From contig CAWBGG010000007.1 in NCBI GenBank assembly GCA_963788205.1, forward strand, positions 378,732 through 442,731: a stretch of DNA of 64,000 nt, written 5' to 3'. A program made the translations under genes and the position numbers. The notes beneath the pieces are model-generated. The model searched no databases. It was given only the letters and a program-made list of their open reading frames with translations, and was not told where the DNA came from. Position 1 is the stretch's first letter. Every line of letters starts with the position of its first letter. This document shows positions 12,502-48,407 of this stretch, piece by piece. The DNA is from an uncultured delta proteobacterium. GTDB taxonomy: Bacteria; Desulfobacterota; Binatia; Binatales; Binataceae.

Positions 12502-12510
12502 TGGTTGGCC

Positions 12511-15768: not shown

Positions 15769-15831
15769 TTTCAGAATAGCAAATGTTTGCCGAAGACGCG
15801 GCCGGCTGATGGGCCGGCTGGTTGGGGGCTG

Positions 15832-16461: not shown

Positions 16462-16540
16462 CGCGCCGGCTTCGACGGCCGGCCACGGCCGTTGGCCGCG
16501 AGGCCGCATCTTCGATGCGCCCGGCTGAAAATCTGAATTC

Positions 16541-18295: not shown

Positions 18296-18345
18296 GCGCA
18301 AGGGCTATGATCGAAAAGGAAAGCCTACTTGGGAAGCCTATTTGA

Positions 18346-20385
18346 ATGATCACTTGTCCTGAATGCGGCTTCGCGGCCGGTGACGAAGCGAAATTCTGCG
18401 ACCGATGCGGCCAGGGACTGACTCGCGCCGCTGCGCGGCCGCCGTCGCTGCCGCCGCTCAGCCCCGGCGCCACACTCAAGGGCGGCTTCCAGATCGTCGA
18501 GTTGCTCGGCGCTAACTCCGCCGAGAATCGGTACCGTGCGACGCGCAGCGTGGACGGCGAGAACCAATCGTTCCAGCTTCGCGAGCGAATGGGGCCGGCC
18601 ACCGACCCGGAAGCGCACGAGGAGACGCCCGAGGCCGCGACCGCGAGCATTGCGGATAGAGCGGCATCGAGCACCGCGGATGATCCGAGCGGGCCGCGCG
18701 CCAAAACGCGTGATCTCAAGCCGTCCGCAGCCGCGCCGGCACCGTCGCGAGCCGAACCGGTCGCGCCCCCGTCGGTCGATTCGGAGCTGCATAGCGCCGA
18801 GGCTCCGTTGGGTTCGCCCGAGGTCGATGACGGATCGGGTGCCGAGCCGATCGTCCTGATCGAGACGGTAGCCGAAGGCGCCGCAGACGGTGCGAACCCG
18901 GCGCAAGACGCGCCCGCCGATCCGACCGGCGCGGATTCGTCTGTGGCCTCGGAGCCCCCACCGCCGGACGATCTCGGTGACGTCTTCGGCCGCGTGCTCT
19001 CGCTTTCGCAGACGATTAAGCATCCGGCGTTCCAATGCGCGCTTTCCGGATTCGCCCAGGATGGGCGCGTCTACCTGGTGTATCGCGACGAGAGTCCGCC
19101 ACCGCTCGCGGCGCGAGCCGGCGGTCTGCGGATGAGCGAGCCCGAAGCTATCGGGCTTGCGATCCAGGTGTGCCAGGCGGTCTCGGCGCTCCATCGGCGG
19201 GGCCTGCGGGTCAACGACATCTGCCCGCAATCGATCGTCATCGCGCCCGACGGCCGCGTGAAGCTCACCGGCCTGGATTACGTAAGCAACGACACCGAGC
19301 TGCAGTCCGACCCGATTTTCAACGACGGTTACACCGCGCCCGAAATCTACAAGGGCAGGCGGGCCGACAAGCGCGCCAACGTCTTTTCGGTCGGCGCGTT
19401 GCTTTACACCTGCCTGACGGGCGAGCGTATCGAGGCCGAAAGCTGGCTCGAAGAGGCGGGCGCGTTGAACTTCTACCCGCCGCATGTGGTCTCGCCCGCC
19501 CTCGAACAGGTGATTCGCCGGGCGCTGGCCTTCAATCCCGGCGAGCGATGGCCCACCGCCGACGCGCTCAAGACCGAGTTCATCAAGCTCGGCAGCACGA
19601 TCACGATTCGCGCCGCAGCCCTGACCGACGTGGGCCTAGTACGCGAACTGAACGAAGACGCGGTGATGGCGCTCCAGTACTCGCGGCAATCCCAGATCGA
19701 GCCGGCCGAAAGCTATCTCTACCTGGTAGCCGACGGGATGGGTGGGGCGGAGGCGGGCGAAGTCGCAAGTGCAATTGCCGTAAGAGCGATCCGGGAATAT
19801 GTTGAGAGCAAGCTCGCAGCCGAGGAAACCGCCGGCCCTTCCAGAGGAACCGCTGATCTTTGCGGACTGCTCAAGGACGCTCTCGAAGAAGCCAATCGCA
19901 GGATCCTCGATCATCAGGCGGCGAACCCGGAATTGCGCGGTATGGGATCGACCGCAGTCAGCGCATTGATTCTGCCGCCCGAGGCGGCCGTGGCCTGGGT
20001 CGGCGACAGCCGCGCCTACCTGAGCGACGCTGCGGGTATCCGCCAACTCACCAAGGACCATTCGCTGGTGCAGCGCCTGATCGAGATCGGACAGTTGACC
20101 CCGGAACAGGGGCGCAGCCACGAGCACAAGAACGTGATCACGCGATCGCTCGGCGCGCGGCAGAGCGGACCGGCCGGCGCCGAAGCCATCGCGATTCGGC
20201 TCAAGCGCGGCGACCGGATGGTGCTGTGCAGTGACGGCTTGACCACCCATGTCGAGGACCATCCGATCGGCGAAATCGTGCGCCGCCACAATGATCCTTA
20301 TGGGGCGGCACGTGAGCTGATAGTGGCCGCCAACGCCGGCGGCGGGACCGACAACATTTCAGTGGTAGTAATTTACGCCGAGTAG
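18346..20385 (+). CDS. zinc-ribbon - pseudokinase-like domain - PP2C Ser/Thr phosphatase fusion
   Basis: CPECGF...CDRCG ribbon. The kinase-like fold lacks the Gly loop and VAIK, and has LRVNDICPQS and LDY in place of HRDLKPxN and DFG. PP2C motifs LVADGMGG, GSTAV, VGDSRAY, SDGL, GGTDNISVVV are present. Confidence 0.75.
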   Translation: MITCPECGFAAGDEAKFCDRCGQGLTRAAARPPSLPPLSPGATLKGGFQIVELLGANSAENRYRATRSVDGENQSFQLRERMGPATDPEAHEETPEAATASIADRAASSTADDPSGPRAKTRDLKPSAAAPAPSRAEPVAPPSVDSELHSAEAPLGSPEVDDGSGAEPIVLIETVAEGAADGANPAQDAPADPTGADSSVASEPPPPDDLGDVFGRVLSLSQTIKHPAFQCALSGFAQDGRVYLVYRDESPPPLAARAGGLRMSEPEAIGLAIQVCQAVSALHRRGLRVNDICPQSIVIAPDGRVKLTGLDYVSNDTELQSDPIFNDGYTAPEIYKGRRADKRANVFSVGALLYTCLTGERIEAESWLEEAGALNFYPPHVVSPALEQVIRRALAFNPGERWPTADALKTEFIKLGSTITIRAAALTDVGLVRELNEDAVMALQYSRQSQIEPAESYLYLVADGMGGAEAGEVASAIAVRAIREYVESKLAAEETAGPSRGTADLCGLLKDALEEANRRILDHQAANPELRGMGSTAVSALILPPEAAVAWVGDSRAYLSDAAGIRQLTKDHSLVQRLIEIGQLTPEQGRSHEHKNVITRSLGARQSGPAGAEAIAIRLKRGDRMVLCSDGLTTHVEDHPIGEIVRRHNDPYGAARELIVAANAGGGTDNISVVVIYAE

Positions 20386-20412
20386 GCGTCAATAGCTGGT
20401 AGAATAATTGCG

Positions 20413-22764
20413 ATGACGAGCCAGCCGCCCAACAATCCCGATTCCGCCGCCACGGCGCCGCTGGCCGCCGGGGTCGTCCTTCAGAATCGCTACCTGATCG
20501 AGCGCCTGATCGGCGGTGGCGGAATGGGGATGGTCTATCTGGCGCGCGACCAGCGCTTGTCCAACCGGCCCTGCGCGATCAAGGAGATGGTCGATCACTT
20601 CATCGACCCGCAACAGCGCCTGGAAGCCAACGAATATTTCGCCCGCGAAGCCGACACCCTCGCCCAACTGAAGCATCCCGCGATTCCGGCGATCACCGAC
20701 CGCTTCGACGATCAGAACCGCCATTACCTGGTGATGGAGTACGTCGAGGGGCGCAACCTCGAGGAGGAGATCGCGGTCAACGGCGGTCCGTTCGCCGAGG
20801 GACTCGTGATCGACATCGGGCGCCAGTTGTGCGACGTGCTCGCCTACCTGCACAGCTTCACGCCGCCGGTCGTGTACCGCGACATGAAGCCCTCCAACGT
20901 GATGCTGACGCCCAAGGGACGGGTCGTGCTGATCGATTTCGGCATCGCGCGGCTGTTCCGCGCCGCGCGCAAGGGCACGATGATCGGCACGCTGGGCTTC
21001 GCGCCGCCCGAGCAATACCAGGGGATGGTCGATCCGCGCAGCGATATCTACTCGCTGGCGGCAACGCTGCACTACATCCTGACCGGGCGTGACCCGGAGA
21101 AGTTCCCGCCCTTCAGCTTTCCGCCGGTGCGCGAGTTGCGTCCCGAGGTCTCGGGCAACCTGGCCGGCTCGCTCGACATGGCGCTGGCCTACAAGCCCGA
21201 AGATCGCCCGCAAGCGGTTCAGGAATTCCGCGACATGATGCTCTACGGGCGCGGCGTGGCGGCCACCGGGCGCGTCAGCTCCAAGAGCGGCACCGCCGGA
21301 ATCGCGCCCCCGCCAGTCCCGGACGAAGACCTCATCCCGATCCGGCCGCGGTCCCGGAACACCTTCGCCAACGCCGCAAAGATGGCAGTGGTGCTGCTGA
21401 TGCTGGGGACGGTCGCGTTCGGCGCCACGTATATTTATTCGAGTCCGGCCCTGCAGATGCAGCTCGGGATCAAGCCGCTGATCGACAAGCTGCCGTGGCG
21501 TCACGAAGAATTGCTCGCCGCGGCCCGCGACCATCCACTCGAGTTCGCCCGCATGACCCTCCAGCTCTCGACGCGCGAGGGCGCGCCGCTGTCGCCGCCC
21601 AAGGCCTCTTTCACCGACGCGGAGCTTTCCGACGCGCGCTACCTGAAATGGGACGCGACCTTCACCAACCATCTTTCGGGGCTCGAGGGACGCTCCGACA
21701 AGGTCGAGGCGCGCTTCTTCGATCCCAGCGGACTGCAAGTCGCTTCCACCAACGTCGAGCGCTTCGTCGGCCCCGACGAGAAAACCATAGACTTCAGCGG
21801 CGTCGCGCTGGTGCCCGATCTCTCCGATCGCCCGCGCGGCGATTACAAGGTGAATCTCTCGCTGGGCGATCAGAGCCTGGCCGAGCAGCGCTTCTCGATC
21901 ACCGAAGATCTGGCGAGCAAGGCCAGGGCCGCGGCGGCCAAGGCGGCACGCGAAGCCGCGGCGCGCGAGGATCAGGAGAAACGCCTGGCGGCCGAGCACC
22001 GGCTGGCGATGATCGAGGAGCGCAAACAGAAGCCGCTGCAACTGGTCGATATCCACTTCGTCAACAGCACCAAAACCGGCACGCCGCTCTCCAGCCCGGC
22101 CGACAATTTCGACCCCGCCAAGGTGCTGTTTGTCGACTGGGAGGTCAGCTTCCAGAACCGGCTCTATAAGCTCGACAACAATCAGTACCGGGTCAACGCC
22201 GCCTACGTGGCGCCGGACGGACGCACGCTGGGCAGCGTCTACGACACCCGGATGGTTCCGGAATCGCTGCGCGAAGTCACGTTCAGCGGACGGGTCGGCA
22301 ACTCCAGCGGCGGAGCCTTCATTCCCGGCACCTACACTGTGACGTTTTATCTAAACGGCCAGTATCTGGCGGAGCGGAAGTTCCGCGTCGGTTCAGCCGA
22401 GGCGCTCAACGGCGGCGAAACCACCAGCATGGTGTCGCCCGGCGCCGCGGCGATCAGCCTCGACTCGCCGACGCTGGCCAGCGGCAATATCAGCGGGCTG
22501 GCCGGCAAGAGCAGCATCCCGATCGAGCTCCGGCTGAGACCCCAGCCCAACGGCTTTCTGCACGGCGAGCTGGTAATTCACGAAACCGGTTACGGACTCA
22601 CGCCCATCGAAGGCTATATCCGCGGCACCCATCTCTCGTTCCAGGTCCCCTATCGCGGCGAGACCCTCTACTTCGAAGGCGAGCAGAGCGGCGCCGGCCT
22701 GCAGGGAACCTTCGAGGGCGCCCCGTCAGGCGAACACGGCACCTGGACCGCCCGCCCGTCGTGA
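20413..22764 (+). CDS. membrane-anchored Ser/Thr protein kinase with large extracytoplasmic C-terminal domain
   Basis: GGGGMGMVY, CAIKEM, VYRDMKPSN, DFG, APE. One predicted TM segment (MAVVLLMLGTVAFGATYIY) followed by about 450 aa of non-cytoplasmic sequence. Confidence 0.8.
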   Translation: MTSQPPNNPDSAATAPLAAGVVLQNRYLIERLIGGGGMGMVYLARDQRLSNRPCAIKEMVDHFIDPQQRLEANEYFAREADTLAQLKHPAIPAITDRFDDQNRHYLVMEYVEGRNLEEEIAVNGGPFAEGLVIDIGRQLCDVLAYLHSFTPPVVYRDMKPSNVMLTPKGRVVLIDFGIARLFRAARKGTMIGTLGFAPPEQYQGMVDPRSDIYSLAATLHYILTGRDPEKFPPFSFPPVRELRPEVSGNLAGSLDMALAYKPEDRPQAVQEFRDMMLYGRGVAATGRVSSKSGTAGIAPPPVPDEDLIPIRPRSRNTFANAAKMAVVLLMLGTVAFGATYIYSSPALQMQLGIKPLIDKLPWRHEELLAAARDHPLEFARMTLQLSTREGAPLSPPKASFTDAELSDARYLKWDATFTNHLSGLEGRSDKVEARFFDPSGLQVASTNVERFVGPDEKTIDFSGVALVPDLSDRPRGDYKVNLSLGDQSLAEQRFSITEDLASKARAAAAKAAREAAAREDQEKRLAAEHRLAMIEERKQKPLQLVDIHFVNSTKTGTPLSSPADNFDPAKVLFVDWEVSFQNRLYKLDNNQYRVNAAYVAPDGRTLGSVYDTRMVPESLREVTFSGRVGNSSGGAFIPGTYTVTFYLNGQYLAERKFRVGSAEALNGGETTSMVSPGAAAISLDSPTLASGNISGLAGKSSIPIELRLRPQPNGFLHGELVIHETGYGLTPIEGYIRGTHLSFQVPYRGETLYFEGEQSGAGLQGTFEGAPSGEHGTWTARPS

Positions 22765-35411: not shown

Positions 35412-36572
35412 TCAGACCACCTGGCGAAAGCCCAGGGCCGGGGGAATACGCATCGCCTCGGCTATCGGGATTGCGCCGCTCAGCAGGCTGACCACGATCG
35501 CGGCGACCAGTCCCTGAATCGCCGCCGCCGGCATCACGAACAGCGCGCCATTGCCCCCGAGCGCCGCGCCCAGCGATACGCCGCCGGCGAATAGCCACAA
35601 TGCCACGCCCGCGCCGAGGGCGCCCCCGGCCATCCCGATCAGCGCGCATTCGCCGAACAGAAGATTGGCGATCTGGCCGGGGCTGAAGCCCAGGGCGCGC
35701 ATCACGGCGACCTCGCCGATACGATCGCGGACCATCATCGCGGCCGAGTTGGCCGCGATCAGCCACACCGTCAGGATCACCACCGCGGACAGGCTGAAGA
35801 CGATCGCACGGATGTTTCCGACCGCGGAAAGGCCGTTGGAGAGCGCGTCCTTCTCGGTCATGGTGCGGGTTTCATATGGCGAGTTGTGGAAGTGATCGTC
35901 GATTTGCTTCGAGAGCATCGCCAGGCGCTCGGGCGTGTCGGCGCGCACGATCAATTGCCAGGCGATGTCGTCGGCTGGATAGCCGTGGGCCTTCATCGCC
36001 TCGTTGAAATAGTCGCGACTGAAGATGAAAGAGTTGGGGTAATGTTTGGAGGGGATGTCGGCGACCAGAATAAAGGTCAGGTCCATCCGCGCAAACGCAT
36101 CGGCGCCGTGTAACGTGATCTGCTGGCCGAGCTTCCATCCGTACTTGGCCATCAGCGCGCGCCCCACTGTCGCGGCCCGGCGATCGTTGCGCATCGAGGT
36201 CATCACGTTCTGACTGAGCCCGTAGTCTGGGAAGACCTGGCTGATCTCCGGGCCGACCGCGGCGGCGAAAAACGAATCGCGCGGATCTCTGTAGGTCGCA
36301 GGCCATCCCCTGATCGCCACGCACGCGGCGCATCCGGGCATCTGGCGAATCTCATCGCAGTAGCGCGAGGGCAGGTCGTACCAGGGCGCGGTGCGATTGT
36401 TGACCACCAACCGCAGCGTGGTGGAAGCGTCGCGGATGATGCGATCCATCGAGGCCGGCACCGAGATCAGCACTGTGAACACGAAGGTCGCGGTGGTGAT
36501 CACCAGCGTGGTCAGCATGGTACGGCGGAAGTTGCGGCGCATATTGCGCTCGATCAATTTGAACAGGTTCAT
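35412..36572 (-). CDS. ABC transporter permease, FtsX/MacB-like
   Basis: N-terminal TM, a periplasmic domain of about 200 aa, and three C-terminal TMs typical of FtsX-like permeases. Confidence 0.8.
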   Translation of the reverse strand: MNLFKLIERNMRRNFRRTMLTTLVITTATFVFTVLISVPASMDRIIRDASTTLRLVVNNRTAPWYDLPSRYCDEIRQMPGCAACVAIRGWPATYRDPRDSFFAAAVGPEISQVFPDYGLSQNVMTSMRNDRRAATVGRALMAKYGWKLGQQITLHGADAFARMDLTFILVADIPSKHYPNSFIFSRDYFNEAMKAHGYPADDIAWQLIVRADTPERLAMLSKQIDDHFHNSPYETRTMTEKDALSNGLSAVGNIRAIVFSLSAVVILTVWLIAANSAAMMVRDRIGEVAVMRALGFSPGQIANLLFGECALIGMAGGALGAGVALWLFAGGVSLGAALGGNGALFVMPAAAIQGLVAAIVVSLLSGAIPIAEAMRIPPALGFRQVV

Positions 36573-36606: not shown

Positions 36607-37763
36607 TCAGGCCGTGCGCAATGAATCCATCACGCCGATTCGCGCCGCGCGCGCGGCCGGCAGCAATCCTCCGATCGCGCCGATAATCGCCGCCGCGATC
36701 AGTCCCGATACCAGGGCGCGGCCGGTGAGCTGATACGAGAAGATGAACTCGCCAACACTCATCAAGCGGCTGTTGAGTCCGGTCGCGGTGGCCACGGCGA
36801 TCGCGAGCAGCTCGCCGATCAGTCCGCCAGCCACGCCGATCACGATACTCTCGATCACGAAGCTCAGCAGCACGTTGCCGCGCGTGAAGCCGAGCGCGCG
36901 CAGCACGCCGACCTCTTTGCCGCGCCGCGCCACCGCCGCGTACATCGTGTTCATGCCGCCGAAGGTCGCGCCGACGCCCAGGATGATCGCGATTATCAAT
37001 CCGAGTCCGCGCAGTTGGTCGGCGAACTCCGATTCCTGCGCGTAAAATTCGGTCTCGGTCTCAGCGTCGGACCGCAGCCGCGCGTCATTGTCGAGCGCGT
37101 GCTTGAAGGCGTCCTCCATACCGGGCTTGAGCACTACGTGGATCGAGGCGAACCCGCCGTTGGGATAGCCCATGTCCTGGCGCAGCACGTCGAGGTCGGT
37201 CCAGATTTCCGACTCGCGCGCGCTGTCGTGATCCGAGAACGCTCCCACCACCGTCCACGTTCGCCGGCCGAAGCGAACCGCTTTACCCGGCGCCAGCTCG
37301 GGGGTCCGCGCCAGCAGCTTGCGCCCGACCACCATTTCGCTGCTGCCGCGCGCGGGCCATCGCCCACTGACGATCCGCATGTCGTGATGCACGCGGTAGG
37401 CTTCGGGATAGACTCCGCGCAGAAAGGTGAAGTTCTGATTCGGCTGGTCGGGGTTGGCGAAGAATCCGGTCACCGCCTCGGGCGAGGCCAGCGTCAGGTT
37501 GCCCTCGTTCGCGATCTCCGGCGGCTCCGGATCAACTCGTACTGCTCGTAGCTGATAAAGCTGGCCGGCTCCGAGGTGATACCGCGCGCCAGCACGATCC
37601 AGTTGCCCCGATCAGCTGCGCCCATCACGGTGCCGCGCAATCCAGCGATCAACCCCGACAGGATCACGAGGATCATCACCACCAGGGCGACGCCCATAGC
37701 GGTCATCAGCGAGGTGGTCCGCCGCACCATCAGGCTGCGCAGGTTGTAGCGTATAGGAATCAT
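36607..37763 (-). pseudogene. second FtsX/MacB-like permease, split by a frameshift (N-terminal 89 aa in one frame, remainder in another)
   Basis: Frame at 37494-37763 encodes the TM1 start and ends ...ISYEQYELIRSRRRSRTRAT*. The adjacent frame continues ...EPPEIANEGNLTLASPEAVTGFFANPDQ... into ORF 36607-37473. A single-nt indel lies somewhere between 37473 and 37560. Confidence 0.6.
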
Positions 37764-37968
37764 TGTCGTGCCGGTTTAGGACGAAAGAAAAACTAGAAGT
37801 TATCAGAGAGTCATTCCCGAATCGACAGCAGCGGAACCCGGGCAGCATGCGGTTCGCCTACTGCGCCAATGCGGATTCAGGAACAAATGCATTCCTTGCT
37901 CCGCGAGGCCTGCGCTAGTCTGAACGGACGATGCATCCGGCGACGCCGGGTTGCGACGATTCTGGGAT

Positions 37969-38799
37969 ATGGCTGATCGCACTCCGATTCCGGTTGGCAA
38001 ATACGCCAAGACCGCCAAGGGCTACGAGATCCACTACCACGAGGCCGGCGGCGGTGGCGATCCGGTGGTGTTCATCCACGGCGCCGGTCCCGGCGCCAGC
38101 GGTTACAGTAACTTCAAGCGGAACTATCCGTTTTTCGCCGAGCAGGGCTTGCGCGCGATCGTGCCCGACCTGCCGGGCTACGGGCTGTCCTCCAAGCCCG
38201 CGGACGTGGCCTACACGCTCGACTTCTTCGTCGAGACCCTGCGCGGATTTCTCGACGCGATCGGCGTGCGGCGATGCGTTCCGTTGGGCAATTCGCTCGG
38301 CGGCGCGATCGCGATCAAGTACACGCTCGACTATCCCGACTCGGTGAGCAAGCTCATCCTGATGGCGCCGGGCGGCCTCGAGGAGCTGCCGACCTACCTG
38401 CAGATGGAGGGCATCCAGAACATGCTCAGGGTCCATTCCGCGGGCCCAATCAACGCAGAAGGCATCCGCAACATCATGTCCAAGCAGCTCTACGACCCCG
38501 CTCTGCTCACCGAAGAGCTGCTCGCAGAGCGCGCGGGGATTTCCGTGACCCAGCCGAGCACCGTGCTCTCCACGATGCGGGTGCCGAACATGGCCGCGCA
38601 ACTTGGTTCCATCCGATGCCCGGTGCTGGGCTTCTGGGGAATCAACGACAAGTTCAATCCGGTCAGTGGCGCGACCAAAATTGTCGAAGGATGTCCAAAC
38701 GCGCGCGTTACGCTGCTCAACCGCTGCGGTCACTGGGTGATGGTCGAGCATCGCGACTTCTTCAACCGCGCGTGCATTGACTTCCTGCGCAACGGCTGA
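37969..38799 (+). CDS. alpha/beta hydrolase, meta-cleavage product (C-C bond) hydrolase family (MhpC/BphD-like)
   Basis: GNSLGG nucleophile elbow and the alpha/beta-hydrolase pattern. Lies upstream of the hydratase gene. Confidence 0.75.
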   Translation: MADRTPIPVGKYAKTAKGYEIHYHEAGGGGDPVVFIHGAGPGASGYSNFKRNYPFFAEQGLRAIVPDLPGYGLSSKPADVAYTLDFFVETLRGFLDAIGVRRCVPLGNSLGGAIAIKYTLDYPDSVSKLILMAPGGLEELPTYLQMEGIQNMLRVHSAGPINAEGIRNIMSKQLYDPALLTEELLAERAGISVTQPSTVLSTMRVPNMAAQLGSIRCPVLGFWGINDKFNPVSGATKIVEGCPNARVTLLNRCGHWVMVEHRDFFNRACIDFLRNG

Positions 38800-38811
38800 T
38801 TCGCTCGGGCG

Positions 38812-39603
38812 ATGGATGACAGCGCCGTCAGCGCTCTGGCCGACGAGCTGTACTCGGCCTTGCGCGCGCGCTCGACCGTGGCTCCGCTCAGCGAACGCCA
38901 TCCCGACATCACGATCGCCGATGCCTATCGCATCTCGCTCCGGATGCTTGAGCGGCGCACCGCCGACGGCGAGCGCGTGATCGGCAAGAAAATCGGCGTG
39001 ACCAGCCGCGCGGTGCAGGAGATGCTCGACGTACATCAGCCCGACTTCGGCTTCCTGACCGACGCGATGCGCTATCCCGACGGCGCGACGATAAGCATCC
39101 GCCGGGCCGGGTTGATCCAGCCGCGCGCGGAAGGCGAGATCGCTTTCATCCTGAGCCATGACCTCGCCGGATCGAACGTCACCGCCGCCGACGTGCTCGA
39201 CGCCGCCGAAGCGGTGATGCCTTGCTTCGAGATCGTCGACTCGCGGATCGCGAACTGGAAGATCAAGATCGAAGACACCGTGGCCGACAACGCTTCGTGC
39301 GGCGTCTTCGTGCTCGGCCAGGCGCGCGTCGATCCCAAGGGACTCGACCTGGCCTCGGTGCGGCTCGAAATGTTTCGCAACGGAGAGCCGGTCGCTTCGG
39401 GACTCGGCTCGGCGGTGCAGGGGCATCCGGCGGCGGCGGTCGCATGGCTCGCCAACACGCTGGGCAAGTTCGGTATCCCGTTCCGAAAGGGCGAGATCAT
39501 TCTTTCCGGTTCCCTGGTGCCGCTGATCCCGGCGTCGGCCGGCGATAGCTTCGAACTGTCTATCGGCGGCATCGGCGGAGCCTCTGTCCGATTCGCCGAT
39601 TGA
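38812..39603 (+). CDS. mhpD: 2-keto-4-pentenoate (2-oxopent-4-enoate) hydratase
   Basis: MhpD/BphH/HpcG-family pattern over the full 263 aa. Confidence 0.8.
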   Translation: MDDSAVSALADELYSALRARSTVAPLSERHPDITIADAYRISLRMLERRTADGERVIGKKIGVTSRAVQEMLDVHQPDFGFLTDAMRYPDGATISIRRAGLIQPRAEGEIAFILSHDLAGSNVTAADVLDAAEAVMPCFEIVDSRIANWKIKIEDTVADNASCGVFVLGQARVDPKGLDLASVRLEMFRNGEPVASGLGSAVQGHPAAAVAWLANTLGKFGIPFRKGEIILSGSLVPLIPASAGDSFELSIGGIGGASVRFAD

Positions 39604-39850
39604 CTAGTACGCTATTAGTTCAAAATGGAAATTCCGGCTTAATGGCGCAATTGCCGTCCAGCGATGCGACACTGACGCAAGGGGGTGGATTTTGCGCTAT
39701 GGCTGCTGTACTTCCCCAGCAACGCCATTCCAAAGGCACCCGCGAGTGCGAAAAGAAGATAACTCCGTCTCAACGCTGCCTCCCCATATTGTATCCGGGA
39801 TTTCCGTTTTGACACCTCGGATTAAGATGATAATTAGTACAGGTTCCCCT

Positions 39851-40801
39851 ATGAAAGTTACCATGGACCGAAAATGTTGGGGTTTCACGCCTCCCGGCGT
39901 CAAAGCATGCTGCAGGCAGTGGTTTTGCCTATTAGTTGTCGCAGGGTTTCTAACTGGCTGTGCGTCAACCGGCACGTCAGCGTATCGCAACCCTAACTTT
40001 GACCAGAGCAAATCTTACCGGGTAGCAGTTTTCCCATTCCGCGATGCGCCTCAAGCTCCCGGAAGTGGCGATGCGCTGTCAACCATATTTGAAGGTACGC
40101 TTTTGGCAAGTGGTGGAAGGTTCGAACTGGTTGACCGTGGAGAAATAGAGCGGATTTTGCGCGAGCACCATGCGGGTGTCAATGGGATGGGGGCCGGTGT
40201 CGGCGGGGATCGTCCGGATTATGTACAAGAATTTGAGGATCCGGTTGGAGTCGGTAAACTACTCCGGGTTGACCTTGTTGTTGTGGGTACGGTAACAAAA
40301 TGGCAGGACTTGCCAGGCAGACCCTCGGTCGCAGCTTTAGTCAAAGCGGTTAGCGTAGAAAAAGGGGTTGTTGTTTGGTCTCTGGATCAGTTTACGGATG
40401 ATGCGCCTCATAACCCCGTGGATTTTGTGGCTTCCAAGCTTTGCCGCCAAATGATCGCCACGTTGGTGGGAAAGAATCCGATCGCCTTGTGGCATACGAA
40501 ATCCGAAGGCGCGGAGCTGGAGCTTGGTTCAACAAACACGCTGGTGTATCGTAACCCCAACTTTGACCAAAGCAAATCGTACCGGGTAGCAGTTTTCCCA
40601 TTTCACGACGCGCCTCAAGCCCCCGGAAGTGGAGATAGGCTGTCAAGCATATTTGAAAGTACACTTTTGGCCAGCAGTGGAAACTTCGAAGTCGTTGAGC
40701 GTGAAGAAACAGAGCGGAGTTTGCGCGAGCGCCATCCGGATGTCAATGGGATGGGGGGCCGGTGCCGGAGGGGATCATCCGGATTATCGACAAGAAGTTG
40801 A
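39851..40801 (+). CDS. CsgG/LpoB-like lipoprotein, copy 1, fused in frame to a signal-less partial copy 2 that then frameshifts
   Basis: Lipobox FLTGCAS. Core YRNPNFDQSKSYRVAVFPF(R/H)DAPQAPGSG...IFE.TLLAS.G.FE.V.R.E.ER.LRE. After copy 1 the frame runs through ...IALWHTKSEGAELELGSTNTLVYRNPNFDQ... into a second core with no stop, then goes out of frame at a run of 6 g (5 g in copies 1 and 3). Confidence 0.6.
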   Translation: MKVTMDRKCWGFTPPGVKACCRQWFCLLVVAGFLTGCASTGTSAYRNPNFDQSKSYRVAVFPFRDAPQAPGSGDALSTIFEGTLLASGGRFELVDRGEIERILREHHAGVNGMGAGVGGDRPDYVQEFEDPVGVGKLLRVDLVVVGTVTKWQDLPGRPSVAALVKAVSVEKGVVVWSLDQFTDDAPHNPVDFVASKLCRQMIATLVGKNPIALWHTKSEGAELELGSTNTLVYRNPNFDQSKSYRVAVFPFHDAPQAPGSGDRLSSIFESTLLASSGNFEVVEREETERSLRERHPDVNGMGGRCRRGSSGLSTRS

Positions 40802-41048
40802 GGATCCAGTTGCTGTCGGTAAACTTCTCCGGGTTGACCTTGTTATCGTGGGCACGGTAACAAACTGGACTCAACGTCAGGCATTCGGATCCTCGGTCGG
40901 AGCTTCTGTCAAAGCGGTTAGTGTAGAAAAAGGGGTCGTTGTGTGGTCTTTGGTTAAGTCTACGGAACACCATTACGCGATCAACGTCGTGGCTCGCAAG
41001 CTTTGCAGCCAAATGATCGCGGCATTGGTGGGTAAGAATCCGAATTAG
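40629..41048 (+). pseudogene. out-of-frame C-terminal remainder of lipoprotein copy 2
   Basis: This frame encodes GAGGDHPDYRQEVEDPVAVGKLLRVDLVIVGTVTNW...ARKLCSQMIAALVGKNPN, homologous to the C-terminal halves of copies 1 and 3. Confidence 0.6.
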
Positions 41049-41060
41049 AACTGTTCCCCT

Positions 41061-41705
41061 ATGGAGGCTACCATGCACCGAAAGTGTTGGGGCTTCGGGC
41101 CTGCCAGCGTCAGAGCATTCTGCAAGCAGTGTCTTTGCCTATTGGTAATCACAGGGTTTCTAACTGGCTGTGCGTCAACCGGCACGTTGGTGTATCGCAA
41201 CCCTAACTTTGACCAAAGCAAATCTTACCGGGTAGCAGTTTTCCCATTCCACGATGCGCCTCAATCCCCCGGAAGTGGAAATGCGCTATCAACCATATTT
41301 GAAAGTACACTTTTGGCGAGCGGTGGAAAGTTCGAAGTGGTTGAGCGTGGAGAAATAGAACGGATTTTGCGTGAGCGCCATCCGGATGTCAATGGGATGG
41401 GGGCCAGTGTCGGCAGGGATTCTGGACAAGAATTCGAGGATCCGGTTGCGGTCGGTAAGCTTCTCCGGGTTGACCTTGTTATTGTGGGCACGGTAACAAA
41501 CTGGACTCAAGGTGTGCAAGCAGGCTGGGCTACTTTTTCCACTACCGCGGTCGGAGCTTCTGTCAAAGCGGTTAGTGTGGAAAAAGGGGTTATTGTTTGG
41601 TCTTTGGATCAGTCTGCACAGCCTGCTTGGGTCCTTACCGGGCCGGTGGATGCTGTGGCTCGCAAGCTTTGCCGCCAAATGGTCGCGACATTTGTGGGAG
41701 AGTAA
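41061..41705 (+). CDS. CsgG/LpoB-like lipoprotein, copy 3 (intact)
   Basis: 214 aa. Same leader (ttcccctatg...ccatg), lipobox and core as copy 1. Upstream sequence is also duplicated. Confidence 0.7.
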   Translation: MEATMHRKCWGFGPASVRAFCKQCLCLLVITGFLTGCASTGTLVYRNPNFDQSKSYRVAVFPFHDAPQSPGSGNALSTIFESTLLASGGKFEVVERGEIERILRERHPDVNGMGASVGRDSGQEFEDPVAVGKLLRVDLVIVGTVTNWTQGVQAGWATFSTTAVGASVKAVSVEKGVIVWSLDQSAQPAWVLTGPVDAVARKLCRQMVATFVGE

Positions 41706-41889
41706 TTGTCCAATGTTGTGAATCGGCCGGTGGACCGAGGCGAACTCCGTCGACGAACTTCACGCCCGCACGGACCAGAGACAAGAGGGTGGCGCCGTCG
41801 AGGCGCCGCCAGCGCTGCTGGGCCATGTCGAGCAGCTTGAACGCCATCAGCAGTGCCTTGGTTCTTGAATCGGCGCGCCAGGCGGCTCG

Positions 41890-41957
41890 GTGAATTTTTA
41901 CGTGAGCGACGACGACAGCACGCCGACGTGGGGCAGCGCCGATTACCGGCACCAGTA
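41890..41957 (+). pseudogene. relic 3-prime fragment of a kinase paralog
   Basis: tttttacgtgagcgacgacgacagcacgccgacgtggggcagcgccgattaccggcaccagtag encodes FYVSDDDSTPTWGSADYRHQ*. It is nearly identical to the last 20 codons of the next gene (FYVSDDGSTLTWGSNSYRRQ*), and has the same stop-to-start junction. Confidence 0.65.
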
Positions 41958-41973
41958 GCGGGAGAGGAACGTC

Positions 41974-44163
41974 GTGCTTTCAGCAGGCTTCGTACTGGCC
42001 GGCCGCTACCGCGTGATTCGCTTGCTCGGCGGCGGCGGAATGAAGCGCGTCTATCTCGCCGAAGACGCGGGGCAAGCCGCACTGCGGCGCGTGGTAGTCG
42101 AGCCCGCGAACGATCCTGGCGAGCCGCAAGCGCGAGAACAGGCATCCGCAGGGCTCCAACTGAAAGCACAAGCGCTGGAGCCCCTTCGCAACGGGCACCT
42201 CGCCCAGTTGCTCGAGTTCCTTACTGAAGACGGCCGCCTCTACCTAATCCGCGAGTACGTAGAAGGCGAATCGCTAGAAGAGCGAATCAGGAGGATGCCG
42301 AAGACCGGTTTGGCGCCTGAGTTCGTAATCGGCCTCGCGCTCCAGATTCTGGACGGCCTGGTTGTTCTGCATGGACTCGATCCGCCGTTCATCTATCGCA
42401 ACCTCAAGCCCTCCAACGTGATCATCGGACCGGAGGGAGTTGCGAAGCTGGTCGATTTCGGCCTTGCGCTCGACCTCGCGCCGCCATCTCTGGCCACAAA
42501 AATCGGCGCGCGGCCATACTCCGCGCCCGAACAGTACGAGCGTCGCGACGGGCCACAGAGCGATCTCTACGCGCTCGGCGCGATCATGCACCACGCGCTG
42601 TCGGGCCGCGATCCCGTCAAATCGGCGCCGTTTCGGTTTCAGCCGCTCGAGCGGCTCCGTCCGGACCTGAATCCCGATCTCTGTAAGCTTGTTGATCGCT
42701 CGCTGGCCTTCAACGTAAACGAGCGCGTCCCGTCCGCCCAGTTCTTCAAGGATTCTCTCCTCGCCATCAAGGCAGGCCAGCCGCTGCCGGCTTTCGCCCC
42801 GGCGCAGGCGCCTGCGTCGCCGGTCGCGGCGCAGCCTGGCGCAGCGGCGCCCGCGCGACCGCGCTCGCGTCGCGCGCCCTGCCCGCACTGCCAACGACGA
42901 ATCCCGCGCGACGCGCGCACCTGCCCTTACTGCGCGCGCAACGTCGCTACGGGCGAGATAGGCGTAGGCGCGTCCTCATCAGGGCGAAAGATCCCCGCGG
43001 CTGCGATAGGCATTGCCGCCGTCGCGGCTGCCGTGGTCGCAGGCGTGTTCATCCTCAGGCCTGATCATGCGTCCAGTCCAGCGGTGCGGCAAATTGCCGC
43101 TCCCGCTTCGGTCCCTTCGCATTCGGCGGCTGAGGCCGAAGCGGAAGCGCATCGGCTCGCGCTCGCGCGGCAGTTCGACGCCGACATGGCGGCGTTTCGC
43201 GGCGCCGAGCCGTCCAGCCACTCACGAGAGAGACTCCGCCGGACGATCATAGCCGAGGGTGTTAACATGAATCCGCCGCCGGGTCTGCCCCAGGACGCAC
43301 TGCAACATCTCGATCGTGGCGATGCCGATCTCAAGGCGCGCAACTATGCCGAGGCGGCCGGCGAGTTTCGCGAGGCGCTGGACGAGGCGCCATGGCTGGC
43401 GCAGGCCTATCGGGGTCTCGCCCGGGCACGCGAATCAGCCGGCGATCTGGACGGCGAGATCGAAGCCTCCAACGACTATTTGCTCGCCTCACCGCAGGCG
43501 TCCGATGCGCTGGAGGTGAAGGCGCATGCCGCAGCGTTGGGCCAGCGAATCTTCGCAAGTCAGAGCGACGCCGCCTTGCGCAACGAGATCCAGGCCCTAC
43601 AAGTCAAGCAGCAGGAGGAGGAGGCGGAGCAGGCGCGAATTCGGGCGCAGGAGCAGGCCGAGGAAGAGGCCCGTCAAGAGCAGCAGCGGCAGAACCAGCG
43701 CCAGCAGGCCGAGCAGCAGCGCCAGCAGGTCGAGCGGGAGCAACGGTGCCGGGAAAACTTCGTCGGAAGGTGGGGAGAGTACGACGTCGAGTGCTGCGGC
43801 GAAAGACGTTCGGGCGCGACCTCTTTTTTACCGCCCGGCTCCGGCGGCAGACCGATTCAGGGGCTGGGAGGAGTATATCAGATCGACCTCGCCGGCAAGC
43901 AGCTACAAGTTTATCGGGTGCTTGGGGTAAAGTGCAGCCGTGCCTGCGAATCGACCGGTCTGTATCAAACCAGCGAACTCGTGTTCGACGGTACCCTCAC
44001 CAATCAACGCACGAATTGGAGCGGCAACTGCAGCTTCACAGCTACCGGCGAGATTCATCACTTCGACCCTTTTGAGGCAGTGCCCATCGACTCGGTGGAC
44101 TTTTACGTCAGCGACGACGGTAGCACGCTGACGTGGGGCAGCAACAGTTACCGGCGCCAGTAG
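41974..44163 (+). CDS. transmembrane Ser/Thr kinase-like protein, predicted pseudokinase, with zinc ribbon, TPR-like and coiled-coil periplasmic region
   Basis: GGGGMKRVY is present. The beta-3 Lys is lost (RRVVVEP). The catalytic loop reads IYRNLKPSN (Asp to Asn). DFG and APE are present. CPHC...CPYC ribbon, then a TM segment, then a TPR-like segment, a Q/E/R-rich coiled coil and a Cys-containing C-terminal domain. GTG start. Confidence 0.75.
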   Translation: MLSAGFVLAGRYRVIRLLGGGGMKRVYLAEDAGQAALRRVVVEPANDPGEPQAREQASAGLQLKAQALEPLRNGHLAQLLEFLTEDGRLYLIREYVEGESLEERIRRMPKTGLAPEFVIGLALQILDGLVVLHGLDPPFIYRNLKPSNVIIGPEGVAKLVDFGLALDLAPPSLATKIGARPYSAPEQYERRDGPQSDLYALGAIMHHALSGRDPVKSAPFRFQPLERLRPDLNPDLCKLVDRSLAFNVNERVPSAQFFKDSLLAIKAGQPLPAFAPAQAPASPVAAQPGAAAPARPRSRRAPCPHCQRRIPRDARTCPYCARNVATGEIGVGASSSGRKIPAAAIGIAAVAAAVVAGVFILRPDHASSPAVRQIAAPASVPSHSAAEAEAEAHRLALARQFDADMAAFRGAEPSSHSRERLRRTIIAEGVNMNPPPGLPQDALQHLDRGDADLKARNYAEAAGEFREALDEAPWLAQAYRGLARARESAGDLDGEIEASNDYLLASPQASDALEVKAHAAALGQRIFASQSDAALRNEIQALQVKQQEEEAEQARIRAQEQAEEEARQEQQRQNQRQQAEQQRQQVEREQRCRENFVGRWGEYDVECCGERRSGATSFLPPGSGGRPIQGLGGVYQIDLAGKQLQVYRVLGVKCSRACESTGLYQTSELVFDGTLTNQRTNWSGNCSFTATGEIHHFDPFEAVPIDSVDFYVSDDGSTLTWGSNSYRRQ

Positions 44164-44174
44164 GGAAGAATCGC

Positions 44175-46106
44175 ATGCTTGCAGCAGGCGTCGTATTGGC
44201 CGGTCGATACCGTGTCGTGCGTCCGCTCGGCGGCGGCGGGATGAAGCAGGTCTATCTCGTAGAAGACACGCGGCTCGCCAATCGCCCCTGCGCGCTGGCC
44301 GAGATGATCGACAGCTTCTCCGACCCCAAGGAAGCCCAGGCCACCGCCGCGGCTTTCCAGCGCGAAGCCGAAATGCTCGCAAGCCTGCGTCATGATCAAA
44401 TCGTCGTCGTTCACGACCGCTTCAGCGAGCAGAACCGCCACTACCTGGTGATGGAGTACGTCGAGGGCGACACGCTGGAGCAGAAGCTTGCGGCTGCTCC
44501 GGGCAATCGGCTGGACGAGAAGCTTATCACCGATGTCGCGCTGCAAATAACCGACGCGTTAGAATATCTGCACCGCCATAATCCGCCGGTCGTTTACCGC
44601 GATCTCAAGCCGGCCAACGTGATGCTCACCCCGGATGGGCGGGTGAAGCTGATCGATTTCGGCATCGCGCGGCTGTTCGTGCCCAAGAAGACCGCAACGA
44701 TGGTTGGGACCCAAGGCTACGCGCCGCCGGAGCAGTACGAGGGCAAGGCCGAGCCGCGGAGCGACCTCTATGCGCTCGGCGCGACGATGCACCATCTGCT
44801 CACGGGCCGCGATCCTGGCACCCAAGTGCCGTTCAGCTTTCCGCCGGTCGGTGGCCTCCGGCCGGACTGTGATTCGCGCATCGCCGACCTGATCGACGAG
44901 TCGCTCAGATACAACCTGGCCGATCGGATCACGAGCGCCTCAGAGTTCCGCAGGCGGCTAGAGAACATCAAATCACCGTCGGGCGGGTTCAGGCCGGCTG
45001 CGGCAGCATCCACGCCGACGCCGTCGGTTTCCGCTCCGCCGTTCGGCGGAGCGGTCACGGTGACGACGCTGATTCAGGCCAGACAGTGCCCGCGCTGCAC
45101 GCGCGGCGTTCCGGTCAACGCGGTCGTATGCCCCTATTGCAGCGCGCGACTGGGGCACACTGCGGTCTCGGCCGGGAAGCGCCGCCGATGGCCGCTCGCT
45201 GTTGCCTCGCTGGCCGTTGCCTTCGGAGCGGTGTTCGCCGGAGCCTATTACTACGAGAATATCTACCTGCCGCAACCGCGGCCGGCCGCCGGGCAGCAAG
45301 CGCACGCGGCACCCGAAGCGCAACCGACGGCTGCCCGGCGTGAAGCGGCGCCGGAACAGCCGCGTCCCGAGAACGCCGCCATCGCGGAGCGGAATGCAAA
45401 TCTCAGTGCGCAACTCGCCCAGGACGTAACTGCGCTCCAGCGCGCCAAGGCAGGCTCTGCGAAGGAGAAGTGGTTGCGCGAGGATGTGATCTCAGCGGCG
45501 CTGCAGATGAGTCCGCCGCCGGCAGTGCCCGACGACGCCCGGAAGCTTATCGATCAAGGAGAGGCGGCCCTGAAGGTCGCAAGCACGGCGGGCGAATATC
45601 GCAAGGCGGCGGTGGAGTTGAATCGGGCGTTGAAGCTCGCCCCGTGGTATGCGCCCGGCTACACAGCGCTGGCGGACGCGGAGGAGGGGGCGAACGATCT
45701 CGATGCGGCGGCTTCGAGTCTAAGGGCATATCTGATTGCCGCGCCGACCGCCGCGGACAGCGCGAGCGTCAGCGCGCGCATCTCGGAGCTTGAGCAACAG
45801 GCGGTCCAGCAGCGGCAGCAGGCGGCGGAACAGCGCAAGCTTGCCGAACTCAAGAAGCAGCAAGAGCAGAAGCAAGCGGAGATCGACAAGGAGCGGCAAG
45901 AAGAAAAGCAGCCTCGGAACGAAGAGCAGACACAAGACAAATACAAGGCTGCCGCGGAGGCTGATTGCCGAAGGGAGCACGCTGCGGTGAACGCATATTT
46001 GTCCTGCCTACAACGATGGCCTCATGACCTCGATCGCTGTACTGACGCACCTCCCCTTTTTCACGACTGCGAGTATCTCTATGAGAAATATGGTGAGCGG
46101 CTTTAA
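44175..46106 (+). CDS. transmembrane Ser/Thr kinase paralog (beta-3 Lys replaced) with zinc ribbon, TPR-like and coiled-coil periplasmic region
   Basis: GGGGMKQVY, CALAEM (Lys to Ala), VYRDLKPAN, DFG, APE. CPRC...CPYC ribbon and a TM segment. Overlaps the upstream gene by about 30 nt. Close paralog of the kinase at 20413. Confidence 0.75.
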   Translation: MLAAGVVLAGRYRVVRPLGGGGMKQVYLVEDTRLANRPCALAEMIDSFSDPKEAQATAAAFQREAEMLASLRHDQIVVVHDRFSEQNRHYLVMEYVEGDTLEQKLAAAPGNRLDEKLITDVALQITDALEYLHRHNPPVVYRDLKPANVMLTPDGRVKLIDFGIARLFVPKKTATMVGTQGYAPPEQYEGKAEPRSDLYALGATMHHLLTGRDPGTQVPFSFPPVGGLRPDCDSRIADLIDESLRYNLADRITSASEFRRRLENIKSPSGGFRPAAAASTPTPSVSAPPFGGAVTVTTLIQARQCPRCTRGVPVNAVVCPYCSARLGHTAVSAGKRRRWPLAVASLAVAFGAVFAGAYYYENIYLPQPRPAAGQQAHAAPEAQPTAARREAAPEQPRPENAAIAERNANLSAQLAQDVTALQRAKAGSAKEKWLREDVISAALQMSPPPAVPDDARKLIDQGEAALKVASTAGEYRKAAVELNRALKLAPWYAPGYTALADAEEGANDLDAAASSLRAYLIAAPTAADSASVSARISELEQQAVQQRQQAAEQRKLAELKKQQEQKQAEIDKERQEEKQPRNEEQTQDKYKAAAEADCRREHAAVNAYLSCLQRWPHDLDRCTDAPPLFHDCEYLYEKYGERL

Positions 46107-46358
46107 CGGCAACACGAGGAACAAGGATTCTCAACCGGCGAAATTCGCGTTCAAGCAGCGAACCCTTGCCGTCCCATTCCCGTCCCAATCAGCGGTACAC
46201 GGTTATTTCCGGTTAAAATCAGGTGCGCGCTGAACTCTGAGCAGATGCGATCGGCTACCGGCGTTGCCGGCGGGCCGGCTCTTTACGGCTTGGAACAATT
46301 CTGGGAAAAAACCATTAGTCAATCATTCGCAGATCTGCCGTCCGGCGGAGATCGGGAC

Positions 46359-47282
46359 ATGAAGCAGGACACTAAGAAGGTCAAATGCGCTCTAATCGGT
46401 TCGGGCAACATCGGCACCGACCTGCTCTACAAGCTCAAGCGCAGCGAGCTGCTCGATCCGGTATGGATGGTCGGGATCGAGCCGGCCTCCGAAGGGTTGG
46501 CGCGCGCCCGCGCGATGGGACTCAAAACCACCGACAAGGGCGTTGACGCGATGCTGCCCCACGTGAAGGAAGACGGCGTCCAGATCGCGTTCGATGCAAC
46601 TTCCGCGTACGTGCATCCGGAGAACTCGCGCAAGCTCAACGCGCTGGGCGTGATGATGCTCGACCTCACTCCCGCTGCGATCGGTCCCTATTGCGTGCCG
46701 CCGGTGAACCTGAAGGGGCACGTCGGCAAGCGCGAGATGAACGTCAACCTGGTCACCTGCGGCGGACAGGCGACGATCCCGATGGTCTACGCGGTCTCGC
46801 GCGTACAGAAGGTCACCTATGCCGAGATAATCGCGACCGTGGCGTCGCGGTCGGTCGGGCCCGGCACCCGCAAGAATATCGACGAGTTCACCCGCACCAC
46901 CGCCGGTGCGGTTGAAAAGGTCGGCGCGGCGAACAAGGGCAAGGCAATCGTAATAATCAATCCCGCCGAGCCTCCGATCATCATGCGCGACACCGTCTAC
47001 TGCACGACCGAGGACCAGCCCAACCGCGAGGCGCTGATGGACTCCGCGCTCGAGATGATCCGCGAAGTGCAGAAGTATGTCCCCGGCTACCGGCTCAAGA
47101 ACGGACCCGTGATCGACGGCAATCGGATCTCGATGTTCATGGAAGTCGAGGGCCTGGGCGACTATCTGCCGAAGTACGCCGGCAACCTCGACATCATGAC
47201 CGCCGCGGCCGCCCGCGCCGCCGAGATGTTCGCTGAAGAGATCCTGAGCGGCAGCTTGGTGCTCGAACCCGTCGCGGCTTAA
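46359..47282 (+). CDS. mhpF: acetaldehyde dehydrogenase (acetylating)
   Basis: [17 protein letters not shown]-terminus and full-length DmpF/MhpF/BphJ pattern. Confidence 0.85.
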
Positions 47283-47295
47283 CGAGTTGACTGAT

Positions 47296-47335
47296 TCTGG
47301 AACGCCTCTCCCTGACCAGAGAGAGGCCGGCGGGC
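47296..47335. repeat. two short GC hairpins in the mhpF-mhpE spacer (family C-like)
   Basis: gcctctc cctgacca gagaggc and cggcgggcg gcgct cgcccgccg. Confidence 0.5.
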
Positions 47336-47378
47336 GGCGCTGCGCCCGCCGGGTGAGGGTAGCCTGAAGGAGGCTCAC

Positions 47379-48407
47379 ATGTACTTGCGCGGGAAGAAAA
47401 TCATCCTGCACGACATGACGTTGCGCGACGGGATGCATCCGAAGCGCCATCAGATAACGCTCGATCAGATGAGATCGATCGCTGTCGGGCTCGACGAGGC
47501 GGGCGTGCCGCTGATCGAAGTCACTCACGGCGACGGCCTGGGTGGCGCCTCGATCAACTACGGCTTCCCGCGCCATTCGGATCAGGAGTATTTCGCCGCG
47601 GTGATTCCGCTCCTCAAGCACGCCAAAGTCTCCGCGCTTTTGGTGCCGGGAATCGGCACGGTCGATCACCTGAGAATGGCGCGCGAAGCGGGCGTGTCCA
47701 CAATCCGGGTCGCCACTCACTGCACCGAGGCCGATGTCTCCGAACAGCATATCGGCCTGGCGCGCGAGCTGAAGATGGATACGGTGGGCTTCCTGATGAT
47801 GGCGCACATGGCGGAGCCTGACAAAATCCTCGAGCAGGCAATGCTGATGGAATCCTACGGCGCCAACTGCATCTATGTCACCGACTCGGCGGGCTACATG
47901 CTGCCCGACCATGTGCGCGCCCGGTTCGGCCCGTTGCGCGAGAAGCTCAAGCCGGAGACCGAGCTTGGCTTCCACGGCCATCACAACCTCGCGATGGGAG
48001 TCGCCAATTCGCTTGCGGCGATCGAATGCGGAGCAACCCGTATCGACGCAGCCGCCGCCGGCCTCGGCGCCGGCGCCGGCAACACGCCGATGGAGGTGTT
48101 CGTTGCGGTCTGCGAGCGGATGGGGATCGAAACCGGCGTCAACGTATTCAAGATCGCCGACGTGGCCGAAGACCTGGTCGTGCCGATCATGGACACGCCC
48201 GTGCGCATCGATCGCGACGCGCTGACGCTCGGCTACGCCGGCGTCTACTCGACGTTCCTGCTGTTCGCCAAGCGGGCCGAGGCCAAGTATCGCGTTCCGG
48301 CGCGGGAGATTCTGATGGAGCTGGGACGGCGGCGCATGATCGGCGGCCAGGAAGACATGATAGAAGACACCGCGCTCACGATGGCGCGTGAGCGCGGCCT
48401 GCTGTAA
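47379..48407 (+). CDS. mhpE: 4-hydroxy-2-oxovalerate aldolase
   Basis: [23 protein letters not shown] and DSAGYMLP motifs of DmpG/MhpE/BphI. Confidence 0.85.

Follow-up and report, generated by a model that had tools for sequence, protein, structure and literature searches.

The stretch analysed here, referred to throughout as the window, comprises 64,000 nucleotides of contig CAWBGG010000007.1 from an uncultured bacterium of the family Binataceae. At positions 39851-41705 it carries three head-to-tail copies of a lipoprotein gene core, which a direct-repeat search placed in register with start-to-start distances of approximately 564 and 646 nt. Alignment of the three array units at the DNA level with MAFFT gave a mean column identity of 79%, bearing out the tandem paralogs proposed in an earlier model-made reading of this DNA (the original prediction). 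Copy 1 (39851-40480, plus strand) encodes a leader with the lipobox LTGC (Cys codon 39959-39961) and a PelC/CsgG-like domain, and lacks a stop codon of its own. Its product ends ...LVGKNP, and the frame stays open through a linker of 20 amino acids, IALWHTKSEGAELELGSTNT (40481-40540, plus strand), which stands in place of a stop, a spacer and a signal peptide, into a second core. This leaderless core, copy 2 (40541-41048, plus strand), begins LVYRNPNFDQSKSYRVAVFPFHDAPQAPGSG at 40541 (also given as LVYRNPNFDQSKSYRVAVFPF), is spread over two reading frames and terminates with TAG at 41046-41048; its homology to the other copies restarts just past the position of the lipobox Cys. The in-frame continuation of copy 1, with no stop, into a second core without a leader was thus as predicted, with the 20-residue linker lying between the two. 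The description of copy 2 as partial was correct for the leader, which is missing, but not for the core itself, which is complete. Copy 3 (41061-41705, plus strand) is an intact single-domain lipoprotein gene encoding 214 amino acids (lipobox Cys codon 41169-41171), with an alternative start at 41073 that has GGAGG just upstream. The cassette therefore consists of two genes, namely gene A (leader, copy 1, linker and copy 2) and gene B (copy 3, a canonical single-domain lipoprotein).

The leaders of copies 1 and 3 are long and Cys-rich, with a hydrophobic stretch followed at the end by the lipobox L-T-G-C, the Cys of which is invariant in the family alignment. Copy 2, having no lipobox of its own, is exportable only when fused. 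The two leaders had been described as identical, but only 29 of 42 residues match (69%), with identity confined to GFLTGCASTGT; likewise, the duplicated upstream sequence, put at 30-40 bp, amounts to a shared stretch of about 20-25 bp (AATTAG..GTTCCCCTATG). The DNA of the linker has no significant similarity to that of the leaders except in its final ~15 nt. An origin of the linker as a decayed signal peptide was rejected, as its local alignments to both leaders scored like those of shuffled sequences and homology was limited to the ~15 nt preceding the core. A degenerate fourth copy ("copy 0") in 39610-39850 was also rejected, since no significant similarity to any copy was found there and a 30-nt repeat was at chance level. 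No noteworthy sigma-70 promoters or intrinsic terminators were found on the plus strand of the array.

The frame of copy 2 is broken by a +1 insertion in a run of six G residues at 40753-40758 (plus strand), leading to a premature TGA stop at 40799-40801. The equivalent run has five G residues in both copy 1 (40189-40193) and copy 3 (41399-41403). Beyond the G6 run, the remaining 98 codons of copy 2 are open in the frame of the open reading frame (ORF) 40629-41048, so that both the six-versus-five-G frame break and the continuation of the C-terminal half in that frame had been read correctly in the original prediction. Removal of one G yields a continuous two-domain ORF of 399 amino acids, and the extra G is the sole lesion in the array.

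Substitution patterns among the three copies were analysed over 155 shared codons by the Nei-Gojobori method, with three-point branch estimates and Fisher tests of synonymous versus nonsynonymous change. Pairwise synonymous divergence (dS) was 0.25-0.35, and pairwise ratios of nonsynonymous to synonymous substitution rates (omega) were 0.43 for copies 1 and 2, 0.56 for copies 1 and 3, and 0.37 for copies 2 and 3, the synonymous excess being significant in each comparison (p = 9e-4, 0.03 and 2e-4, respectively). Branch omega was 0.59 for copy 1, 0.51 for copy 3 and 0.31 for copy 2, for which it was 0.33 past the frameshift. With 39, 47 and 31 unique substitutions in copies 1, 2 and 3, respectively, the three copies form a near-trichotomy. 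The triplication and fusion are old, and purifying selection has acted on each of the three domains, in copy 2 also on the stretch that follows the frameshift. At 52 family-conserved columns, copies 1 and 2 deviate nine times each and copy 3 three times; copy 3 is the most conservative paralog and the fused gene A is faster-evolving. The array had been seen as the record of an ongoing process of duplication and decay. This was not supported, as the near-trichotomy is old, omega lies at 0.37-0.56 with the lowest branch value in copy 2, and a single lesion is present with no progressive decay. The array shows how tandem paralogs can turn into a multi-domain protein via the loss of a stop, a spacer and a signal peptide.

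Assignment of the array proteins to a family was made by profile searches. Copy 3 and the ORF of copies 1 and 2 matched the Pfam family CsgG (PF03783) with 24.9 and 28.9 bits, respectively, against a gathering score of 20.8, which makes them members in a broad sense; the match is partial, covering profile positions 33-118 of 210. Pfam TolB_N scores were below threshold, and no NCBIfam model matched the array proteins. A word-indexed search of 5.8 billion proteins returned 16 non-self relatives, which are 43-59% identical, 185-303 amino acids long and all single-domain lipoproteins. A profile built from these relatives added a few more members, giving about 20 close family members in the same collection, and then reached distant proteins bearing Pfam LpoB (PF13036) together with CsgG. 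When 1.84 billion cluster representatives were searched exhaustively with a profile, nine matches fell below 1e-30, 132 below 1e-10 and 1663 below 1e-3. By these counts, the array family is a narrow subfamily, and the superfamily of small lipoproteins around it is large.

The AlphaFold2 model of copy 3, built from a 26-sequence alignment, had a mean predicted local distance difference test score (pLDDT) of 83 and a predicted template modelling score of 0.73. When this model was compared with the PDB using Foldseek, PelC ranked first (E about 1e-8), followed by GNA1162, FlgT, TolB and LpoB, while the family profile run against PDB sequences matched PelC at 1.2e-5 and CsgG at 6.7e-5. The predicted CsgG/LpoB-like fold class was in this way confirmed by Pfam, profile and model-based comparisons, with PelC as the nearest solved analogue. 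The repaired two-domain protein, modelled with AlphaFold2 without an alignment, reached a pLDDT of only 34, too low to inform on domain packing. Natural multi-domain proteins exist in the wider superfamily (P0042 with two domains and P0076 with four), which makes a functional lipoprotein of two domains plausible.

Composition profiles and the GC content at third codon positions (GC3) of individual ORFs set the cassette apart from its surroundings. The lipoprotein cassette forms a low-GC island (39610-41705, plus strand) that is unique in the window, with a GC content of 52.5% versus 63.8% and a GC3 of 0.50 in all copies versus about 0.8 in neighbouring genes, and with abrupt GC steps at 39610 and 41705. 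The RecA protein encoded in the window is 84-94% identical to Candidatus Binataceae proteins. The genome loci found to carry the lipoprotein family number three, all of them in metagenome-assembled genomes (MAGs) of Verrucomicrobia, and one further fragment came from a Nitrospinae MAG. The best reading of these data is that the array was horizontally acquired from a lower-GC lineage. Because a GC3 of about 0.50 has been kept, whereas the same divergence accumulated in a host with a GC3 of about 0.8 should have raised it, the triplication seems to be older than the transfer, as the fusion probably is too. Carriage by a phage or a plasmid was rejected, as no relatives were found in IMG/VR viral contigs or PLSDB plasmids. 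Neither the foreign nature of the array nor its place in an operon-splitting insertion, described below, had been recognised in the original prediction.

The cassette lies within an inserted segment of approximately 6.75 kb (39610-46358), which was delimited by blastn against metagenome loci L008 and L009 and contains, besides the lipoprotein array itself, two Ser/Thr kinase genes and an IS256 remnant. A metagenome scan based on the hydratase gene had yielded 80 loci, of which these two were the closest, with 89-96% amino acid identity over all four genes and the same DUF1329 gene downstream as in the window. To the left, the insertion is flanked by a gene for a 2-keto-4-pentenoate hydratase-like protein of the Pfam FAA_hydrolase family (38812-39603, plus strand; 89-90% identical to the L008 and L009 genes), which is itself preceded by an alpha/beta-hydrolase gene (37951-38799). 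To the right, downstream of the kinases, follow the genes for an acetaldehyde dehydrogenase (Pfam; 46359-47282, plus strand), with the likely true start at ATG 46359 by comparison with L008 and L009, and a 4-hydroxy-2-oxovalerate aldolase. The left edge of the insertion falls at 39609/39610, six bases past the hydratase stop, and blastn homology is regained at 46371-46374, just inside the dehydrogenase gene. In L008 and L009 the hydratase and dehydrogenase genes are 36-150 bp apart, and the hydratase directly precedes the acetaldehyde dehydrogenase in these and in most other loci that reach past the hydratase. The insertion has split a hydrolase-hydratase-acetaldehyde dehydrogenase-aldolase meta-cleavage operon (37951-39603 and 46359-48407), leaving the genes for the dehydrogenase and the aldolase detached from those upstream and, presumably, from their promoter. 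In L008 itself, an element of about 130 bp (L008:5413-5543) with 18-nt terminal inverted repeats (94% complementary) occupies the same hydratase/dehydrogenase spacer (ACTAGT...); the spacer was hit independently in L008 and in the window.

The stop codon of copy 3 is directly abutted, at the step from low to high GC, by the remnant of an IS256-family transposase gene (41706-41868, minus strand), which encodes the C-terminal ~50 amino acids. A tblastn search of plasmids with this remnant returned 255 records at 47-54% identity, and in the two of the eight records listed that have an annotated feature at the match, this feature was "IS256 family transposase". A complete IS256 element, comprising a transposase gene plus terminal inverted repeats, was not present at this position, since Pfam returned nothing and no terminal repeats were found. 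The remainder of the insertion is taken up by two kinase genes of host-like GC. Ser/Thr kinase 1 (41974-44163, plus strand) has a kinase domain and a weak TPR match (Pfam), and Ser/Thr kinase 2 (44133-46106, plus strand) has a kinase domain (Pfam) and a Zn-ribbon-like CxxC...CxxC motif. The two are 37% identical over 640 aligned amino acids, their genes overlap by 31 nt, and both have long C-terminal regions with TPR-like, Zn-ribbon-like and coiled-coil-like features. The kinase domain of kinase 2 is 51-56% identical to those of other window kinases. Kinase 2 also matched one PADLOC PD-T4-6 model over positions 8-471 of 510 (E 6e-62), a match that may reflect shared kinase architecture only. 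A defence-system reading was rejected, as the lipoprotein had no PADLOC match and the PD-T4-6 and mad6 matches of the kinases were read as largely generic kinase-domain matches. A link between the lipoproteins and the kinases, which the original prediction had proposed to pursue through orthologs located next to kinases, was not borne out, since no kinase was encoded at loci L001, L002, L004, L005 and L088-L094; the adjacency seen here is a by-product of the insertion.

Kinases are also found elsewhere in the window, which encodes at least five of the Hanks type. A signalling cluster at 14443-22764 comprises a VWA protein, an FHA-domain kinase, a kinase-PP2C fusion and another Ser/Thr kinase, and a gene at 11413-12510 (minus strand) encodes a PAS-HisKA-receiver protein with no HATPase_c domain detectable between HisKA and the receiver; the ORF at 12511-12939, upstream of this gene, continues in the same frame across a stop codon. 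About 3 kb upstream of the array lies a gene for an FtsX/MacB-like permease (36607-37770, minus strand), a paralog of its neighbour at 35412-36572. It is split near 37521-37530 by an apparent 1-nt deletion, reading CGCCGGAG where CGCCCGGAG would keep ...YELIRSR in frame with PEIANEGN....

The loci of homologs were examined for conserved gene context. In L001 and L002 the neighbours are not conserved. In the P0012 clade, a giant gene directly follows the lipoprotein gene (L088:3733-7893, L089:3848-7417, L090:674-6738 and L091:3154-5763), with an overlap in three of the four cases. The giant products range from >870 to >2500 amino acids, and the one on the longest contig (L090) has He_PIG, PKD and NHL repeats; the giant could be a surface protein served by the lipoprotein. 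In the P0016/P0017 clade, the family gene comes third and last in an operon of three co-oriented lipoprotein genes (L092:4385-6279, L093:862-2762 and L094:301-1557). The upstream proteins are 56-74% identical between loci, and in L092 both carry lipobox-like leaders. No Pfam family was assigned to these co-operonic lipoproteins or to the neighbours in L002 and L004. At L005:1137-1823 the called product, P0022, has 107 amino acids, while tblastn recovers a full-length homolog in one frame at 1197-1802; the truncation seems due either to an in-frame stop or to faulty gene calling on that metagenome contig.

Two readings of the extra G in copy 2 appear about equal, namely that slippage in the new host produced it very recently and that the assembly is wrong at the homopolymer. 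The lesion is very recent or artefactual, because it consists of a single homopolymer base, no other damage is present and selection on copy 2 is not relaxed. An assembly or base-calling error, in which case the organism has G5 and makes an intact 399-residue two-domain lipoprotein in addition to copy 3, stands at slightly less than an even chance. It would account for a one-base lesion within a homopolymer, for the 98 downstream codons that contain no second lesion, and for the lowest branch omega being that of copy 2 (0.31 overall, and 0.33 past the frameshift). A contig of 1.09 Mb from an uncultured organism, moreover, suggests a long-read MAG, in which homopolymer indels would be the main residual error, and the nearby FtsX-like permease gene likewise has one isolated frameshift. 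That lesion, however, lies outside any long homopolymer, and a GC3-based frame-switch screen of about 55 window genes, several of them longer than 650 amino acids, revealed no other convincing frameshift, indicating that the error rate is not high; the screen is noisy, with the FtsX-like gene as its one convincing case. A change from G5 to G6 is equally the likeliest natural slippage mutation. A real and recent frameshift, with gene A pseudogenising after transfer into a host that lacks the partner machinery, is given the same chance, just short of even. The product would then be a 316-residue lipoprotein in which domain 1 and the linker are followed by half of domain 2 and, at the end, by 15 out-of-frame residues. 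A foreign cassette with no partner genes is a natural candidate for decay, the region is rearranged, with an insertion sequence remnant and another broken gene, the conserved-column deviations in copies 1 and 2 are threefold those in copy 3, and the public gene call on the contig is also truncated (P0002, 324 amino acids). On the other hand, there is just one lesion, and the omega values give no sign of relaxation specific to copy 2. For annotation, a call of gene A as a pseudogene should be treated with caution, as it may be a homopolymer artefact.

A functional switch at the G tract, by programmed +1 frameshifting or phase variation, through which gene A would toggle between a one-domain and a two-domain product, is highly improbable. 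In principle, a Gly-tRNA that reads the GGG of GGG-GGC could pair anew in the +1 frame, in which the conserved sequence is exactly restored; but the A site holds no slow or stop codon, an upstream stimulatory element is absent, the paralogs have G5 in frame, and no family member has a comparable frameshift at the site. Tracts of five to six G residues are, furthermore, far too short for useful slippage rates. A chimeric mis-assembly, in which a verrucomicrobial fragment was spliced into a Binataceae contig to give the low-GC block, is very unlikely. The abrupt GC steps at both edges, and the otherwise verrucomicrobial occurrence of the family, speak for such an artefact. Against this, two chimeric junctions would be needed 2.1 kb apart within a 1.09-Mb contig, the right junction abuts the IS256 remnant and the larger insertion goes on with host-like kinases, and a near-identical verrucomicrobial source is absent from the 5.8 billion proteins, in which the best match is 59% identical.

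We consider it likely that the locus represents a 2.1-kb cassette gained by horizontal transfer, whose three paralogous domains belong to a rare and uncharacterised PelC/CsgG/TolB-N-like lipoprotein subfamily, with high confidence in its anatomy and history and low to moderate confidence in its function. According to this proposal, duplication and fusion probably took place in a donor of lower GC, the family being carried, among named genomes, mostly by Verrucomicrobia, and the array would then have arrived as one block beside an IS256 element. Judging from the lipobox and the fold, the proteins would be exported by the Sec pathway, lipidated at the lipobox Cys (followed by Ala at +2 and Ser at +3) and anchored on the periplasmic side of the outer membrane. 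In that position, the alpha/beta domain may act as a scaffold, probably as an oligomeric ring by analogy with PelC, CsgG, PqiC and FlgT, in which the two-domain form of gene A would supply two protomers per chain. Several points weigh against parts of this proposal. The best homologs are only 56-59% identical, so that no donor is identified, and most members come from unnamed metagenome contigs. Neither the 6.75-kb insertion nor the low-GC block is bordered by terminal inverted repeats or a target-site duplication above chance; one insertion event is indistinguishable from several, and the kinases, with their host-like GC, may have arrived separately. No Pel, curli or MCE partner genes accompany the cassette, the ring or scaffold function being drawn from fold analogy alone, and gene A may have been under relaxed constraint for longer than omega suggests, given nine deviations at the 52 conserved columns versus three in copy 3. 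A bolder extension, in which the cassette encodes a self-contained, Pel-independent, hetero-oligomeric PelC-like ring of three protomer types, two of them linked, that was transferred across phyla from a Verrucomicrobiota-like donor to Binatota, with the G tract tuning the number of protomers per chain, is improbable; if true, the transfer would have given the recipient a new envelope structure. The horizontally acquired cassette is a clean and well-delimited example of the cross-phylum acquisition of envelope lipoproteins into the poorly studied Binatota, of modest wider importance.

Among known systems, PelC (PDB 5T0Z, 5T10 and 9H80) resembles the array proteins in being a small lipoprotein with an alpha/beta domain and a short central beta-hairpin, a fold that the copy 3 model is predicted to share. 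The array family differs from PelC in that sequence identity is only 17-19%, pel genes and a PelB-like partner are missing both from the window around the array and from the homolog loci, helix 2 is followed by a variable insertion that can reach about 50 residues, and the closest relatives of the array proteins have a long Cys-containing leader. CsgG is likewise a lipoprotein and provides the Pfam family matched above the gathering score. At the position of the central hairpin, CsgG has the long transmembrane hairpins of a 36-stranded barrel, whereas copy 3, with 214 amino acids, has a hairpin loop of 12 residues at model residues 150-161. So short a central hairpin speaks against a membrane barrel of the CsgG type, and the hallmarks of the CsgG channel, namely two long transmembrane beta-hairpins per protomer and a length of about 260-280 amino acids, were not found. 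No csgE, csgF, csgA or csgB/curlin genes turned up either when the neighbours in the window were scanned with Pfam or in the homolog-locus gene tables; the label CsgG should not be taken to imply a curli channel.

LpoB (PF13036) is approached by the array family through the distant relatives that bear both Pfam domains, but the Pfam LpoB model gave no match to window proteins at E <= 1, and its combination with a long disordered tether reaching PBP1B, which would mark an LpoB protein, was not found. LpoB, the TolB N-terminal domain, GNA1162, FlgT, PqiC/XCC0632 and LptE belong to the same fold class of periplasmic scaffold domains, differing in that none of their partners is encoded near the array. 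Several proteins of this scaffold class build rings beneath the outer membrane (PMC10897342, PMC12141448): twelve PelC lipoproteins make up one such ring in the periplasm (PMC12141448), and PqiC and XCC0632 are octamers (PMC10897342). The fused architecture has its own counterparts in P0042 and P0076, in which tandem repeats of the same domain follow one N-terminal signal in one polypeptide, as in the repaired gene A. Their relationship is only distant, with E values of 1e-13 to 1e-17 against the family profile, no multi-domain member was found among the relatives of the close subfamily, and the linker of P0042 is a long Pro/Ala-rich spacer, whereas that of gene A has 20 residues. The array draws attention to a rare PelC-like lipoprotein subfamily for which no partner system is known. 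The region as a whole is a rather commonplace instance of transfer, duplication and fusion of genes, involving a PelC/CsgG/TolB-N-like kind of lipoprotein already known; more informative than duplication and decay are its cross-phylum origin, the splitting of the operon and the purifying selection that has acted on the second, fused domain.

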